Shown: positions 1,440-52,602, counted from the stretch's first letter. The stretch: 64,000 bases of DNA from a virus (IMGVR_UViG_3300022752_000013); one strand, 5' to 3'. Translations and numbers: made by a program. The notes: a model not told the origin generated them from the sequence alone.

Positions 1440-2915
1440 ATGAAGCAAATTATAGTACAAAAACGCAGTGGTAGCCGCGAGCCACTTGCATTGGAAAAAT
1501 GGCAAGCACAAATAGCCAAGGTTTGTGCAGGCATAGCGGATGTCAGTCAAAGCATGATTGAGATCAAAGCCCAGTTGCATTTTTATGATGGCATCACAAC
1601 CAAAGAAATCGACGGCATCACACTCAGAGCCATAGTGGACCTGATTGACGTAGAATCAAACCCTGATGTGGGCCACACCAACTATCAGTTTGTGGCAGGC
1701 AAGCAACGACTATCAATGTTGCGTAAAGATGTATACGGTTCATACGATCCTCCTCACCTGTATGAGATTGTGAAGCGGAATGTGGCCACTGGCCTGTACA
1801 CTCCTGAACTCCTGGAATGGTACTCAGAGGAAGACTGGAATCGCATGGAAGACATGATTGATCATGTGAAGGACGAACAGTATTCATATGCGGCAGTGGA
1901 ACAACTGATTGAAAAGTATCTGGTCAAGAATCGTTCAACAAAAGAAATTTACGAAACACCACAAGTGCGTTACATGATTGCGGCTGCCACGGTGTTCCAC
2001 ACGGAAGAACCCAACACAGCCCGTATGCGTTACATAAAGGAATACTACAATGCCGCAAGTGATGGATTATTTACCCTTGCTACTCCCGTCCTTGCTGGTC
2101 TCGGTACCCCTACTAAGCAATTCAGTTCGTGCGTACTCATTAGGAGTGATGATGACCTGGATAGTATTTTTGCTAGTGGTGAAATGATGGCCAAGTATGC
2201 CAGCAAACGTGCTGGCATTGGCTTAGAAATTGGACGACTACGTCCACTAGGGTCGCCCATACGTGGCGGCGAAATCATGCACACCGGCATGATACCATTT
2301 TTAAAGAAGTGGTTCGGCGACTTACGCTCATGCTCACAAGGAGGTATTCGCAATGCAAGTGCTACTGTATTTTATCCCATTTGGCATCATCAGTTTGATG
2401 ATCTTATTGTTCTTAAGAACAATCAAGGAACCGAAGAAACCCGAGTCCGGCACATGGATTATGGGGTTGTGCTTAGTGCTTTCTTCTGGAGACGATTTAA
2501 AAACAAAGAAAACATAACATTCTTTGATCCCAACCAGGTACCTGATCTGTATGAAGCGTTCTATGCCAACACTGAACGTTTTGAAAAACTTTATGTCGAG
2601 TATGAAAAGCGTCGAGACCTGCGTACCAAGACCATGAGCGCGGAAGAAGTGTTCAAGTCAGGCATACTCAAAGAGCGCACTGACACCGGTCGCATCTATC
2701 TAGTGTTCATTGACAACGTTCAGAATCAAGGTCCGTTTGATACTGAGTACCATACCATTTATCAGAGTAACTTATGCCTGGAGATTTTGCTCCCAACAAA
2801 ATCTTTCAAGCGAATGAATCCTGAACGCAAGTTGATTAGAGTTAAAAAGTCCAATGTTAATGAGTTTATGAAAACTAAACCCACAGACATAGTTAAAATT
2901 AGGAAAATAAAATAG
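1440..2915 (+). CDS. nrdA: Ribonucleotide reductase class Ia alpha subunit, N-terminal fragment (NrdA-a)
   Basis: ATP-cone (IIVQKRSGSREPL), TLATPVLAGLGTPTKQFSSCVL, GGIRNASAT and active-site QSNLCLEILLPT. It then ends in a basic non-RNR tail and TAG TAG. The ATG at 1440 is preferred over the track start at 1344. Confidence 0.95.
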   Translation: MKQIIVQKRSGSREPLALEKWQAQIAKVCAGIADVSQSMIEIKAQLHFYDGITTKEIDGITLRAIVDLIDVESNPDVGHTNYQFVAGKQRLSMLRKDVYGSYDPPHLYEIVKRNVATGLYTPELLEWYSEEDWNRMEDMIDHVKDEQYSYAAVEQLIEKYLVKNRSTKEIYETPQVRYMIAAATVFHTEEPNTARMRYIKEYYNAASDGLFTLATPVLAGLGTPTKQFSSCVLIRSDDDLDSIFASGEMMAKYASKRAGIGLEIGRLRPLGSPIRGGEIMHTGMIPFLKKWFGDLRSCSQGGIRNASATVFYPIWHHQFDDLIVLKNNQGTEETRVRHMDYGVVLSAFFWRRFKNKENITFFDPNQVPDLYEAFYANTERFEKLYVEYEKRRDLRTKTMSAEEVFKSGILKERTDTGRIYLVFIDNVQNQGPFDTEYHTIYQSNLCLEILLPTKSFKRMNPERKLIRVKKSNVNEFMKTKPTDIVKIRKIK

Positions 2916-8388: not shown

Positions 8389-8419
8389 AACACCGGCTTT
8401 TCTTTTCCATAAATAATCA

Positions 8420-8635
8420 ATGGGACATCGCTTTGTGATCATGCAGGACGACCAGTTGTCGGAATACACAGAGTACGAACAAATTCCAGATCAGTTTGAT
8501 CACGTGATTGAGTTTGCTCCGGAGATTCCACCTGGACCCCATACTGATCAACAGCATGAAGAAATTGATCAGTGGCAGGTCAAGTTTGAAAGATTAATGG
8601 AAATAGAATATGCCAGCAGCCGCGAGAAAGAGTGA
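8420..8635 (+). CDS. Small hypothetical protein upstream of PAAR
   Basis: 71 aa, preceded by the ATAAATA late motif at about 8409. Confidence 0.65.
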   Translation: MGHRFVIMQDDQLSEYTEYEQIPDQFDHVIEFAPEIPPGPHTDQQHEEIDQWQVKFERLMEIEYASSREKE

Positions 8636-30993: not shown

Positions 30994-31011
30994 TTGTAAT
31001 ATTATCGTAAT
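30994..31011 (+). promoter_or_regulatory. Pho-box-like tandem repeat 1
   Basis: TTGTAAT-ATTA-TCGTAAT, 11-bp period, about 10 nt before TATAAATA. Confidence 0.5.
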
Positions 31012-31029
31012 GTGTACATATATAAATAA

Positions 31030-31103
31030 ACTTAACCGCACACAACGATAGAGTGTGACCAGAACTCGTAACTGGTACTAAGCACCGCAAGGTGCTTTTT
31101 TTT
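31030..31103 (+). ncRNA. Candidate small RNA (two 5-bp hairpins plus terminator)
   Basis: TATAAATA at 31021; CACAC-9nt-GTGTG; ACCAG-9nt-CTGGT; AAGCACC-GCAA-GGTGCTT-Tn; no ORF. Confidence 0.55.
31080..31103 (+). terminator. Rho-independent terminator
   Basis: AAGCACC-GCAA-GGTGCTT followed by a T run. Confidence 0.9.
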
Positions 31104-31128
31104 GGGCTAGTTTTAAAATTAAACACGG

Positions 31129-31146
31129 TAGTCATAAAAATGTCAA
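31129..31146 (+). promoter_or_regulatory. Pho-box-like tandem repeat 2
   Basis: TAGTCAT-AAAA-ATGTCAA, compared with the PhoB consensus CTGTCAT-A(A/T)A(A/T)-CTGTCAY. Confidence 0.65.
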
Positions 31147-31170
31147 AAAATCCCGCTCTATAAATAAGGG

Positions 31171-31818
31171 ATGAAACCCACTATAGCCCTGTTCATTTAC
31201 GATCCCAAGTGTAGTGTACAAAGCGGCAATGGTATTATTCGAGCATTACAATCACACTACAACTTCAAGATATTCGGCAAGAATGAACTGGAAAAAGTTT
31301 TCTTTGACGATGTAGACATGATTGCAGTTCCGGGTGGACTGGGAGATGCCAGCAGTTATGAAACTGCATTCCGATACAATGCCCAACCAGTACGAGACTT
31401 TGTGGCCGATGGTGGTCGATATCTTGGCATCTGCATGGGTGCTTACTGGGCCGGAAGTCACTATCTCAACATCTTGCAAGACGTGGATGCTGAACAATAT
31501 ATCTGTCGCCCGGCAACAGACACACGCAGACCACATGCTAAGAATTTAGATGTGCATTGGAATCATGTTCCTCAAAAAATGTTCTTCTACGATGGCTGTG
31601 CCTTGGTAGGTGATACAAACAAATTCCAAACCGTGGCCACATACACGAACGGTGATGCCATGGCTATTCAACAAAACAACATTGGCTTGATCGGGTGTCA
31701 TCCTGAAAGTGAACAGTTCTGGTACGACAGTTATTCATGGATGCGTGGCCAATATCACAACGGTCGACATCATGGCATGTTGTTGGATTTTGTGGACCAA
31801 ATGTTTGTAACAAAATAG
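31171..31818 (+). CDS. Class I glutamine amidotransferase-like / BPL_N-like protein
   Basis: AVPGGLG, YLGICMGAY (nucleophile elbow) and HPE. Confidence 0.8.
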   Translation: MKPTIALFIYDPKCSVQSGNGIIRALQSHYNFKIFGKNELEKVFFDDVDMIAVPGGLGDASSYETAFRYNAQPVRDFVADGGRYLGICMGAYWAGSHYLNILQDVDAEQYICRPATDTRRPHAKNLDVHWNHVPQKMFFYDGCALVGDTNKFQTVATYTNGDAMAIQQNNIGLIGCHPESEQFWYDSYSWMRGQYHNGRHHGMLLDFVDQMFVTK

Positions 31819-31822
31819 TAAC
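31805..31822 (+). promoter_or_regulatory. Pho-box-like tandem repeat 3
   Basis: TTGTAAC-AAAA-TAGTAAC, 11 nt before TAAATA and the plcP start. Confidence 0.55.
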
Positions 31823-31843
31823 ACAATTCTGCCTAAATACTAG

Positions 31844-32638
31844 ATGCCAAAAACATACCGCAGTATTTTTATCAGTGATGTGCATCTTGGCACAAGAGAC
31901 TGCAAGGCAGAAGAACTAAACAATTTTTTAAAGCACAACTCGTGCGATACCCTGTACCTAGTGGGTGACATCATTGACGCCTGGAAGATACAACAAAACC
32001 GGTGGCGATGGAAACAAAGCCACACCAATGTGGTACGTCGTATACTGGGTCATGCCAAACGCGGCACTCGCGTGGTATTCATAGCAGGCAATCATGATGA
32101 ATTCCTGCGTCCCATGATACCATATGGTTTTAGTTTTGGACTAATAGAGATTCAAAATCAAACTGAACACATTGGTGCAGACGGCCGACATTATCTTGTG
32201 GTGCATGGAGACCTGTTTGATGGTATCACAAGACTGGCACCGTGGATAGCATTTTTAGGAGACCGAGCATATGACTTTATTCTTGCGCTTAATAGCCGAT
32301 TTAATTGGCTACTGCATCGTTTTGGTATTGGGTACTTTAGTCTTAGCCAGTACCTTAAAAAACGAGTGAAGAAGGCTGTAGACTTTATTTTCCACTTTGA
32401 AAAAAATCTAGCCAATTACTGTCGAAAGCGAGGCTACGATGGAGTGATATGTGGACACATACATCATGCAGAGATCAAAGAGATAGATGGTGTTGTATAC
32501 ATGAATGATGGTGACTGGGTTGAATCATGCACCGCTCTAGTGGAACATCATACCGGACGCTGGGAGATTGTAACATGGACACAAAAAAATGACAAAGAAG
32601 ATACTGATAATAACAGACAACTTACCGGACCAGATTAA
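31844..32638 (+). CDS. plcP: PlcP-like phospholipase C (LpxH-like metallophosphoesterase)
   Basis: YRSIFISDVHLG, LVGDIID, GNHDEFLR, HGDLFD, GVICGHIH and YMNDGDWVESCTALVEH. Confidence 0.75.
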   Translation: MPKTYRSIFISDVHLGTRDCKAEELNNFLKHNSCDTLYLVGDIIDAWKIQQNRWRWKQSHTNVVRRILGHAKRGTRVVFIAGNHDEFLRPMIPYGFSFGLIEIQNQTEHIGADGRHYLVVHGDLFDGITRLAPWIAFLGDRAYDFILALNSRFNWLLHRFGIGYFSLSQYLKKRVKKAVDFIFHFEKNLANYCRKRGYDGVICGHIHHAEIKEIDGVVYMNDGDWVESCTALVEHHTGRWEIVTWTQKNDKEDTDNNRQLTGPD

Positions 32639-33590
32639 TGGCGTGGTTACCACTTACAAGAACATTGAGGCTTGTGCGGTATTGGATGGTTATACTGTGG
32701 ATTATATTGATCCCGGGCGGTTCCGCTATGTTGATTGTCCTGGCTACAACGAAGTCAAACTTGCCATTCCGCGGGAGATGGGCAAGAAGATCGAAGAGAT
32801 TGATCCGGATCATATCCACATCGCCACAGAAGGTCCTCTTGGTCTGTGGGCTAGAAAGTATCTTTCAATATGTGGTTATAGGTATAACACCGCTTATCAT
32901 ACTAAGTTTCCTGAAGGGTTAAAGAAACTGTTTGGTATTCCTGAAGCAGTGACTTGGCCCTTGGTGCGTTGGTTTCACAAACATTCGGGCAAAGTTCTGA
33001 CCACAACCGAAACCATGGTACGTGAATTACAATCACACGGGTTTAAAGGTCAAATTGTTCCGTGGACTCGCGGTGTTGACCGTGCAATCTTTAATCCTAC
33101 TCATAGACAAAAAACCATCAGTCGATACATCTTGTGTGTGAGCCGTGTGAGCAAAGAAAAGAATCTTGAAAAGTTTCTTAAAATGGACTATCCGGGGTTC
33201 TTAAAGATCATGGTGGGTGACGGTCCCATGTTGGAAACTTATCGCCGGCAGTATCCTGAGGTTTGCTTTACAGGATTCAAAACAGGAGTGGATCTAGCCC
33301 AATACTATGCCAACGCCGAAGTATTTGTGTTTCCCAGTCAATGGGAAACATTTGGCATTGTGATGATTGAAGCCATGGCCTGTGGAACTCCTGTGGCTGC
33401 CTATCCTTGTCAAGGCCCCGAAGATGTCATTGACGAAGGTGTCACTGGCTGTATGAACACAGATTTAAAGCAGGCCGTCACTGATTGTTTGTTTTTAAAT
33501 CGACAAGGTGTGTGGCAAGGTAGTCAACGTTGGTCATGGGAACGTGCCTGGGCGATATTTAAAGACAACTTGGTGCCAGCAAAGTCATAG
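32589..33590 (+). CDS. GT4 glycosyltransferase (Agt/PimA-like glycolipid synthase)
   Basis: QINGVVTT, IHIATEGPLG, YHTKFPE, RVSKEKNL and ETFGIVMIEAMACG; overlaps the plcP-like gene. Confidence 0.85.
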   Translation: MTKKILIITDNLPDQINGVVTTYKNIEACAVLDGYTVDYIDPGRFRYVDCPGYNEVKLAIPREMGKKIEEIDPDHIHIATEGPLGLWARKYLSICGYRYNTAYHTKFPEGLKKLFGIPEAVTWPLVRWFHKHSGKVLTTTETMVRELQSHGFKGQIVPWTRGVDRAIFNPTHRQKTISRYILCVSRVSKEKNLEKFLKMDYPGFLKIMVGDGPMLETYRRQYPEVCFTGFKTGVDLAQYYANAEVFVFPSQWETFGIVMIEAMACGTPVAAYPCQGPEDVIDEGVTGCMNTDLKQAVTDCLFLNRQGVWQGSQRWSWERAWAIFKDNLVPAKS

Positions 33591-35195: not shown

Positions 35196-36290
35196 TTAGC
35201 GTGGTAACCATGAACTAATGAAGTTCTGTATAGGTTTGTGACGATGCTCCATGTTCCTAATCAGTTGATAATTGTGTACTAAAATTTCTTGTGCCTGTGC
35301 GTACAGCAGTTGCGGATCAGTCTGGGCTAGAAATTCTACTGCTTGCCATGCTTTGGCCCAGCGTTTGCAATCATCAACTATTTCATCATAACTTTCGTCA
35401 ATTAAGTCTTCAAAAGTACGATAGCCCTGTGCTTGTAATTGTGCCAGTGCCCTATACCCACCAAATAGCACAAATACACGTTGACCATGAATTGCTTTTC
35501 CTGTTTTTTCAGTTAAAAATGCAGTTTGTGTAGGGTTAGTTTCAGCCACAATGCTGTACCAACTGTTTTCGTACACTGCTCGAGGAATAAAAACATTTAC
35601 ATTCATTGTTTCGTCAAAAAAATAATTGTTGCCTTTGTAGTAATAGTTGGCGCTGTTATCTTGGAGATCTGCTCGAGCAGTTGTAGTCATTTGCGCATGA
35701 TCAAGTTGATTTAATGCTGGCGATCTATAAAAATATTCTGCTCCATGACTGCCGCTTACTGACAGTAAAGTTTGATCGATAAAATTACTCTGTTGAATCC
35801 ACGCAGACAATTCACGTCTAACTGGGGTGGCTTGTCCTAGTAGTGCTTCAAACAAAAAATCACGTTGTACTGGTTGTTTTAATTCAAGATTTTGGTTGGC
35901 TGCACATACCCTATCAAACGTAGTCAGTGTAGGTGTATATACTTGTTCGTGCCTGGGCCAATATCGAGGCACACCTCCAGTTAACACAATCACGTGTGAA
36001 CATTTTGTTTGTTGTTGAAGATCACTGATAAATTTGTCGGGAGATAATTGACTGTCAATGATTTCTGGAGTGTATCCTATGACCATGTCTGCCCAACTGC
36101 AATCTTTAAAATGGTCGTTTTGAAAAATTTCTACTATGGCAATTTTTTTCCTAGAGTCATTGATAAATTTTTCAACTGGTTCCCAGACCACTTCACAGTC
36201 TGGAATCCAAGGCCATCCGTGCGACTCAGCATAATGTGCCGGAAACCCAAAATGGTAATTGTCGCACAAAATTAAGTAAGGTTTGGACAT
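35196..36290 (-). CDS. Putative glycosyltransferase-like protein (TEKT family)
   Basis: YSIVAET...FLTEKTGKAI...GYRTF..LIDESYD. Confidence 0.6.
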   Translation of the reverse strand: MSKPYLILCDNYHFGFPAHYAESHGWPWIPDCEVVWEPVEKFINDSRKKIAIVEIFQNDHFKDCSWADMVIGYTPEIIDSQLSPDKFISDLQQQTKCSHVIVLTGGVPRYWPRHEQVYTPTLTTFDRVCAANQNLELKQPVQRDFLFEALLGQATPVRRELSAWIQQSNFIDQTLLSVSGSHGAEYFYRSPALNQLDHAQMTTTARADLQDNSANYYYKGNNYFFDETMNVNVFIPRAVYENSWYSIVAETNPTQTAFLTEKTGKAIHGQRVFVLFGGYRALAQLQAQGYRTFEDLIDESYDEIVDDCKRWAKAWQAVEFLAQTDPQLLYAQAQEILVHNYQLIRNMEHRHKPIQNFISSWLPR

Positions 36291-36370
36291 GTGAGATATT
36301 TAACGATTAGTGATTGCTCACTAGTAAAAACCATTGATTTGCAGTTGCAGGATCATATATAATAGCACAT

Positions 36371-50724: not shown

Positions 50725-51156
50725 TTACTTGTAAATGTAGTTGATGGTGTCCGAATTTTCGCGATAGACTCCAGCACCATTCTTTAAATGGAAACGTCGG
50801 GCCATCTCGGTCTTGGGACTTAGTGTAACATAGGTATCAATACCAGGGAATTCTTGCTTGATCGACTTCTGTGTTTCCACAATCAACTCACGCCCAGACC
50901 CTGCGGCGTAACTCCAAATTGTATAAAATACTGCAACAGTGGCACTTCCAACCAACTCAGCCAAGTCATCCACAGCCGCCGGAATGGCCTGCAAGAATTT
51001 GACACAGGTCACTGCTTGAGTTTGGTCCCCATCCTTCAACATGTAGATTCGACTGTTGGAGTTTATCCGTTTGGTCATGGGGATTTCAGGACGCACAGGG
51101 TCATCCTTGATCAGGGTTTCTAAGTCTTCTGTAATGGTGGTGATGGTGTGTAACAT
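50725..51156 (-). CDS. Conserved hypothetical protein (GNAT-like fold possible)
   Basis: DDPVRP, FYTIWSY..GSGR and VTLSP...RFHLKNGA. Confidence 0.7.
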   Translation of the reverse strand: MLHTITTITEDLETLIKDDPVRPEIPMTKRINSNSRIYMLKDGDQTQAVTCVKFLQAIPAAVDDLAELVGSATVAVFYTIWSYAAGSGRELIVETQKSIKQEFPGIDTYVTLSPKTEMARRFHLKNGAGVYRENSDTINYIYK

Positions 51157-51224
51157 AATCTACGCCGTTAATGTTTATGTAAAGGTATTTATCACAACCT
51201 TTGTTACATTAAAATTACAGAGTG

Positions 51225-52335: not shown

Positions 52336-52602
52336 ATGCGTTTTAATCCAGAAACTAAGACTTTTAAAGTCTTCAATGCACTCTACAACGGCGAAACTTT
52401 GACTCCATCAGAAGCAAAGAAGCGTTTTGGCGTGGGCAACCTCAGTGCCGAAGCCAGCCGTATCCGTCAAGCCGGTTTTGCTGTTTATAGCAACAGCCGT
52501 GTTGCCGGTAATGGTGTCAAGGTTACAGAATATGTAATTGGGAAACCATCAAGAAAAATCGTAGCCGCAGGCTACAAAGCAATGGCCATGGGCTTGGTCT
52601 AA
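52336..52602 (+). CDS. Winged-HTH-like DNA-binding protein
   Basis: LTPSEAKKRFGVGNLSAEASRIRQAG, followed by a beta-hairpin. Confidence 0.6.
   Translation: MRFNPETKTFKVFNALYNGETLTPSEAKKRFGVGNLSAEASRIRQAGFAVYSNSRVAGNGVKVTEYVIGKPSRKIVAAGYKAMAMGLV

Follow-up and report, generated by a model that had tools for sequence, protein, structure and literature searches.

Pho-type tandem repeats at a fixed distance from late-type promoter cores in a giant lake phage

A giant lake phage carries sites resembling those of a phosphate-starvation regulator at a fixed distance in front of its own late-type promoter cores for phosphate-saving genes, suggesting, from sequence comparison alone, that these genes are probably switched by the phosphate sensor of the host. 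The design is conserved in many related phages. The window analysed here is a 64,000-nucleotide stretch of a giant freshwater phage (IMGVR_UViG_3300022752_000013) with 43.5% G+C. A sequence-only reading had proposed that three 7-4-7 direct repeats with an 11-bp period, each shortly upstream of a TA(T)AAA(TA) element, precede a small RNA, a GATase-like gene and plcP, and that this island is wired to the host phosphate-starvation response, possibly through hybrid PhoB/late promoters. All three repeats were found exactly where they had been placed, and the observation is confirmed; a fourth site had been missed. Both halves of the interpretation, the Pho-type box and the late-type promoter, are supported by comparative evidence, though not by experiment. 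The features are as follows, where L numbers denote loci of related phages.

30994..31011 (+), box 1, TTGTAAT-ATTA-TCGTAAT, a Pho-type tandem repeat 9 nt before TATAAATA and 11 nt before TAAATA, conserved in L001, L005 and L011
31021..31028 (+), TATAAATA, late-type promoter core for the RNA unit (TAAATA at 31023-31028)
31029..31105 (+), conserved structured RNA element (a terminated RNA of about 75 nt): hairpin CACAC-AACGATAGA-GTGTG, hairpin CCAG-AACTCGTAA-CTGG, then a terminator hairpin and T8
31129..31146 (+), box 2, TAGTCAT-AAAA-ATGTCAA, 12 nt before TATAAATA and 14 nt before TAAATA; the same GTCA-type box and 14-nt spacing occur in L001, L005 and L007, while L009 has 11 nt
31159..31166 (+), TATAAATA, late-type core 4 nt before the ATG of the GATase-like gene (leaderless layout)
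31171..31818 (+), GATase-like gene of unknown function (215 aa, BPL_N domain, Pfam PF09825, E 7.5e-9); the homologue in L036 also matches GATase_3
31805..31822 (+), box 3, TTGTAAC-AAAA-TAGTAAC, overlapping the stop codon of the upstream gene, 11 nt before TAAATA
31834..31839 (+), TAAATA, late-type core 4 nt before the plcP ATG (leaderless layout)
31844..32638 (+), plcP (264-aa metallophosphoesterase, Pfam Metallophos, annotated LpxH in databases)
32589..33590 (+), agt (333-aa GT4 glycosyltransferase, Pfam Glycos_transf_1 and Glyco_transf_4), overlapping plcP by 50 nt and without a promoter of its own
51203..51220 (-), box 4, CTGTAAT-TTTA-ATGTAAC, 11 nt before TAAATA (51186-51191, minus strand), kept in L229, L241 and L242 but absent from most relatives, which have TAAATA alone
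50725..51156 (-), 143-aa protein downstream of box 4 with a malonyl-CoA-decarboxylase C-terminal (GNAT-like) domain (Pfam PF05292, E 5.5e-6), here called MCD-like, with more than 595 related phage loci

Scored only by mismatches to the E. coli consensus CTGTCAT-N4-CTGTCAY, boxes 1 to 3 are unremarkable: they match 9, 10 and 8 of 14 positions, while the window holds 461 positions scoring 9 or more and 72 scoring 10 or more. Likewise, the strict pattern YTGTAAY-N4-YTGTAAY with one mismatch allowed is not enriched over its reversed control in five large related contigs, and only the composite with TAAATA is informative. This composite reads yTGT(A>C)AY-AwmA-yTGT(A>C)AY, followed after 11 nt (sometimes 14 or 21-22) by TAAATA. 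It occurs four times in the window and never in 560 Markov simulations, 60 of window composition and 500 of intergenic composition. The looser pattern GTMAY-N6-GTMAH has six hits in the window, of which four are intergenic, lie on the gene strand and are each followed by TAAATA at 11-14 nt; it was this pattern that uncovered box 4. A weight matrix built only from bacterial pstS Pho boxes ranks the four sites 4th (box 2), 6th (box 1), 8th (box 3) and 15th of 127,966 positions, and a matrix built only from phage boxes at genes not orthologous to the targets in the window ranks boxes 1, 4 and 3 as 1st, 2nd and 3rd, with box 2 at 95th. The objection that equally good matches occur throughout the AT-rich intergenic DNA, which the sequence-only reading had named as a refutation, therefore does not hold.

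PlcP has 218 relatives in IMG/VR lake viral contigs, some up to 525 kb long. Their upstream regions have diverged in flanks and spacers, yet they keep yTGTAAY-N4-yTGTAAY followed by TAAATA-N4/5-ATG. Across 663 kb of loci there are 143 GTMA-N7-GTMA boxes, and TAAATA follows at exactly 11 nt in 41, at 21 nt in 9, at 14 nt in 5, and almost nowhere else. All 52 boxes with TAAATA are on the gene strand and have the layout of two 7-bp direct repeats separated by 4 bp, as do the four sites of the window. Good boxes without TAAATA are rare (12), and most lie on the strand opposite to the plcP gene or inside open reading frames; no box followed by a host-type TAnnnT was seen in the phage loci. In 31 non-redundant sites from outside the window, the positions that were not forced by the search are conserved (T2 27/31, T13 26/31, A8 28/31, A11 24/31, and a pyrimidine at positions 7 and 18), giving yTGTAAY-AwmA-yTGTAAY, which differs from CTGTCATAWAWCTGTCAY essentially only at position 5 of each half-site. 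The phage half-site consensus yTGTAAY shares 5-6 of 7 positions with CTGTCAT, with A at position 5 in about 80% and C in about 20%. When only TAAATA next to the plcP start was used as the anchor, 25 of 28 distinct plcP promoters carried the box, and the gap from TAAATA to ATG was 4-6 nt in 27 of 28 relatives.

Besides plcP, the composite in related phages precedes phage pstS (PBP_like_2, E down to 6e-39), the GATase-like gene, the RNA element, a radical-SAM gene and an unknown MRxEDLA protein whose transcript would begin with a conserved hairpin. Pfam gave nothing for the MRxEDLA protein, and the ESM Atlas gave only viral hypothetical clusters. Scans of ten large related contigs (90-525 kb; five estimated 95-100% complete; five picked through the unrelated MCD-like gene) gave 14 hits against 3 for the reversed-pattern control, and all but three hits lie at plcP, pstS, the RNA element, the GATase-like gene or the MRxEDLA gene. 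By contrast, 57 of 60 distinct promoters of the MCD-like gene have TAAATA but only about 4 have a box. TAAATA is therefore a self-sufficient promoter core, and the box is an addition reserved almost entirely for phosphate-related genes. The nearest contig to the window, G001, is not collinear around box 4.

The closest bacterial PstS and PlcP are from Burkholderiales. Phage PstS is 55-73% identical to PstS of this order, mainly Comamonadaceae and including Lake Mendota MAGs, and PlcP homologues up to 59% identical were found in 200 of 401 Burkholderiales genomes searched. The best 120 PlcP homologues in a protein search were all phage-like and carried no host information. The host, probably a freshwater betaproteobacterium, is inferred only from the similarity of two auxiliary genes. 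Upstream of the bacterial pstS genes lies nTGTCAY-N4-yTGTCAY, followed after exactly 10 nt by TAnnnT in 50 of 58 cases. A GTCAY-N6-GTCAY box lies upstream of bacterial plcP in about 23 of the 35 loci examined, in agreement with the putative Pho boxes reported at bacterial plcP clusters (PMC4796936). In the Burkholderiales pstS boxes, however, 63 of 69 are GTCA in both halves, and GTAA, the main phage form, appears in only a few, all from lower-GC genomes.

The early promoters of the window are textbook TTGACT-N17-TATAAT with GGAG ribosome sites, and the host therefore has ordinary sigma-70 signals. A sigma-70 reading of boxes 1 to 3 themselves (-35 TTGTAA with 17-bp spacing) does not fit any of the three by direct inspection. 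TAAATA, which is invariant at the box promoters, belongs to a different class: 18 of 36 TAAATA in the window lie within 60 nt upstream of a same-strand gene start, nine of them 1-7 nt before the start codon. A gp55-type late sigma (phrog_234, E 1e-21 to 8e-25) is encoded in 4 of 5 related plcP-bearing contigs. The T4 late consensus TATAAATA lies at -13 to -6 (PMC1524935), and in that register phage box-N11-TAAATA and host box-N10-TAnnnT both put the box at -40 to -23, in place of a -35 element, while the 21-22-nt class sits one helical turn further upstream. The ATG of plcP and of the GATase-like gene then falls at the predicted start or 1 nt after it, so these mRNAs would be leaderless, and the predicted start of the RNA is at about 31034. 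Four lake metatranscriptome runs contain short contigs over plcP and agt, some of them identical and one crossing box 3, but as contigs cannot show starts, strand or level and DNA carry-over is possible, no conclusion on expression was drawn from them.

The explanation that we favour, with moderate confidence, is that the repeats are binding sites for a host PhoB-type response regulator grafted onto T4-type late promoter cores. In a phosphate-starved host, phosphorylated PhoB would bind head-to-tail to the two 7-bp repeats and raise transcription of a small phage regulon consisting of plcP-agt (phospholipid-to-glycolipid remodelling), the GATase-like gene, a structured RNA and, in relatives, pstS. 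What the analysis itself establishes is the composite motif with its fixed spacing and conservation, its near restriction to these genes, the matching box and geometry in Burkholderiales pstS promoters, and, in related phages, a gp55-type sigma without any OmpR/PhoB-type domain (no Trans_reg_C domain, PF00486, was found in five related contigs, two of them complete), which favours a host regulator. That the binding protein is host PhoB, that it binds at all, that the effect is activation under low phosphate, and whether the gp55 holoenzyme, the sigma-70 holoenzyme or both at different times read these promoters are inferences. Some observations sit less easily with this view. The half-sites are mostly GTAA, box 2 has an off-phase 14-nt spacing, and gp55 lacks the sigma region 4 that PhoB contacts, leaving the route of activation unexplained. 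It is possible, though we consider it unlikely, that host PhoB~P directly activates the gp55-type late holoenzyme from a box at -40 to -23. If so, this would create a nutrient-gated subclass of late promoters for leaderless mRNAs that does not depend on the replication-coupled sliding-clamp route, with a structured RNA co-regulated as a 3' element or a stand-alone transcript, and would be a new mode of activation both for OmpR/PhoB regulators and for T4-type late transcription.

A phage-encoded regulator remains a rival, though an unlikely one. The best candidate is an early-expressed 88-aa winged-helix protein (HTH_39, window 52336-52602) that lies behind a sigma-70-type promoter. The phage would then run its phosphate module on its own programme, much as T4 MotA turns on middle promoters from a box near -30, and the invariable late-type -10 element does point to a phage-adapted transcription system. 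Among five large related contigs, homologues exist in G001, G002 (two copies) and G003, within 5-14 kb of plcP, but no homologue and no HTH_39 domain were found in G004 and G005, which do have box promoters, although these two are only 61-69% complete. The gene also travels with the MCD-like gene in relatives whose MCD-like promoter has no box. Small winged-helix proteins usually bind inverted repeats, whereas head-to-tail 11-bp repeats are the hallmark of OmpR/PhoB effectors. Moreover, a temporal class would include many genes, yet whole genomes hold only one to four such promoters, almost entirely at phosphate-related genes, and the sequence matches the Pho box of the host lineage.

It is also unlikely that the boxes bind another OmpR-family host factor, or act as a constitutive upstream enhancer of late transcription, without any link to phosphate. 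The GTAA core differs from the GTCA of the presumed host lineage, and read on the other strand the half-site is GTTACA, which resembles OmpR-type half-sites. The orientation (TGTMAY on the coding strand) and the 11-bp period nevertheless fit PhoB and not the 10-bp GTTACA repeats of OmpR, the target genes pstS and plcP-agt are the classic Pho regulon, and ordinary late promoters in the window and at the MCD-like gene work without boxes. Chance matches in AT-rich intergenic DNA, which the mismatch counts and the strict pattern might have suggested, are refuted by the simulations, the ranks with two independent matrices, the fixed spacing to TAAATA and the conservation of the box across relatives whose spacers and flanks have diverged.

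The proteobacterial Pho box, as in E. coli pstS and phoA and in the Burkholderiales pstS promoters examined here, shares with the phage box the two 7-bp direct repeats, the 11-bp period, the A/T-rich spacer with A at positions 1 and 4, the bases T2, G3, T4, A6 and Y7 of each half-site, the strand orientation, an end at about -23 and a location in front of pstS and plcP. The phage box differs in having mostly A at position 5, in its -10 partner (TAAATA 11 nt away instead of TAnnnT 10 nt away) and in the second class with the box 21-22 nt upstream. Classical T4-type late promoters, read by gp55 with gp33 and gp45, likewise have a core close to gene starts. They have no upstream activator site, and most TAAATA promoters have no upstream element; the box promoters, a small subset which carry a response-regulator-type box where a -35 element would be, are therefore a hybrid subclass and not ordinary late promoters. 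In T4 middle promoters an activator box also replaces the -35 element at a fixed distance from the -10 element, but the MotA box is a single 9-bp element paired with a sigma-70-type -10, with sigma appropriation by MotA and AsiA, and defines a large temporal class, whereas here there are tandem repeats, a late-type -10 and a handful of nutrient-related genes. Bacterial plcP-agt lipid-renovation operons contain the same gene pair with a Pho-type box upstream (PMC4796936); here the pair is carried by a phage, is driven from a late-type core and has the layout TAAATA-N4/5-ATG.

Control of phage phosphate genes by the host Pho system is documented only for marine cyanophages: host PhoB of Synechococcus binds promoters of S-PM2d, and pstS and phoA of P-SSM2 are under host PhoBR control (PMC10976474). 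In those lytic T4-like phages, too, host Pho-regulon sites stand in front of auxiliary phosphate genes, so that these respond to the phosphate status of the host, but the cyanobacterial boxes are PyTTAAPyPy(T/A) repeats, and in S-PM2d predicted boxes were a poor guide to PhoB binding. New here are the proteobacterial type of the box, its strong conservation, its fixed fusion to a late promoter core, the inclusion of plcP-agt and a structured RNA, and the setting in abundant giant freshwater phages with a probable betaproteobacterial host; a literature search found no paper describing this. The arrangement would imply that these phages sense host phosphate status and mine the membrane for phosphorus only when needed, and it raises the question of how a response regulator that normally contacts sigma-70 region 4 could work with a late sigma that lacks it. 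The motif also provides a simple sequence tag for finding phosphate-responsive genes in uncultured phages, and points to a cultured system, Pelagibacter phage Mosig on HTCC1062.

The RNA element behind box 1 matches no known Rfam family, as none was found in the window, but an nhmmer search finds it in 14 loci. It consists of a first hairpin with the loop AA(C)GAT(A/T)GA, a second hairpin with the invariant loop AACTCGTAA, and a terminator. Both stems show compensatory changes: stem 1 appears as CACAC/GTGTG, CCAC/GTGG, CCGC/GCGG, CCTC/GAGG and GTAC/GTAC, and stem 2 as CCAG/CTGG and CTGG/CCAG. RNAalifold recovered only hairpin 2 and the terminator, because hairpin 1 is offset by one column in the alignment, and the covariation of hairpin 1 was read directly from the sequences. 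In relatives the element sits just 3' of pstS or of another box-driven gene, the MRxEDLA gene, whereas in the window it follows box 1 directly. Box 1 and the RNA therefore look like a pstS cassette without pstS, and the same arrangement occurs next to plcP in L068, while its relative L071 has pstS between promoter and RNA.

A conserved structured RNA lies at window 31029-31105, and it was also found in loci of related phages at L009:3034-3113, L042:3668-3744, L071:3894-3970, L023:6489-6566 and others. It consists of two hairpins with the invariant loops AACGATAGA and AACTCGTAA, whose stems show compensatory changes, and a terminator. In the relatives this RNA is located just 3' of pstS or of another box-driven gene, while in the window it stands alone behind box 1. 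The element has no Rfam match. A possible role for this RNA could be that of a 3'UTR-derived small RNA, or it could serve as a stabilising or terminator module. The island as a whole (window 30994-31822, compared with L009, L042, L068 and L071) is mosaic: the box-promoter cassettes, which comprise pstS, the GATase-like gene, the RNA and plcP-agt, occur in different orders and orientations among the relatives, and the flanking genes differ.

Another conserved hairpin is associated with the gene encoding the MRxEDLA protein. In five loci from related phages (L004:5581-5640, L023:5457-5500, L024:5728-5770, L060:4226-4270 and L321:1501-1560), the box promoters of this gene are followed, right at the predicted start, by a conserved hairpin of the form GTGTGCC-NNNN-GGCACAC. 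Searches of Pfam and the ESM Atlas gave no function for this protein. In locus L060, just upstream of plcP, the tandem box (CTGTAAT-AGTG-TTGTAAT, 2553-2570, minus strand) is on the opposite strand to plcP. On that strand TAAATA follows after 32 nt, and this may be a divergent promoter.

The cultured pelagimyophage Pelagibacter phage Mosig EXVC030M (L309:2276-2425, corresponding to MT647606.1 93979-94128) contains pstS and plcP, the latter annotated as UDP-2,3-diacylglucosamine hydrolase, arranged divergently. The intergenic region shared by these two genes holds TTTAACA-AAAA-CTTAACA direct repeats with an 11-bp period, and TAAATA-N5-ATG precedes plcP. It is possible that this is a SAR11 version of the same design, in a system that is open to experiment.

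The candidate for a rival, phage-encoded regulator of the boxes is an 88-aa HTH_39 winged-helix protein (window 52336-52602, plus strand), whose gene is located behind a sigma-70-type promoter. This gene is conserved next to, and divergent from, the MCD-like gene in many related phages, though its role as a regulator is no more than a possibility on present evidence. Two copies of the winged-helix gene, at about 77,282 and 459,853, as well as two copies of plcP, at about 82,183 and 184,978, are carried by a single related contig of 524,565 bp (G002, IMGVR_UViG_3300027749_002876). Only the second plcP copy has the box directly upstream. While this contig may represent a very large phage, it may also be a joined assembly.

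In the window, TAAATA is located 4-7 nt before many start codons that have no Shine-Dalgarno sequence, for example at 8410-8422, 31161-31173, 31834-31846 and 36290-36302 (minus strand), so that many late genes look leaderless. The early genes, in contrast, have TTGACT-N17-TATAAT and GGAG.
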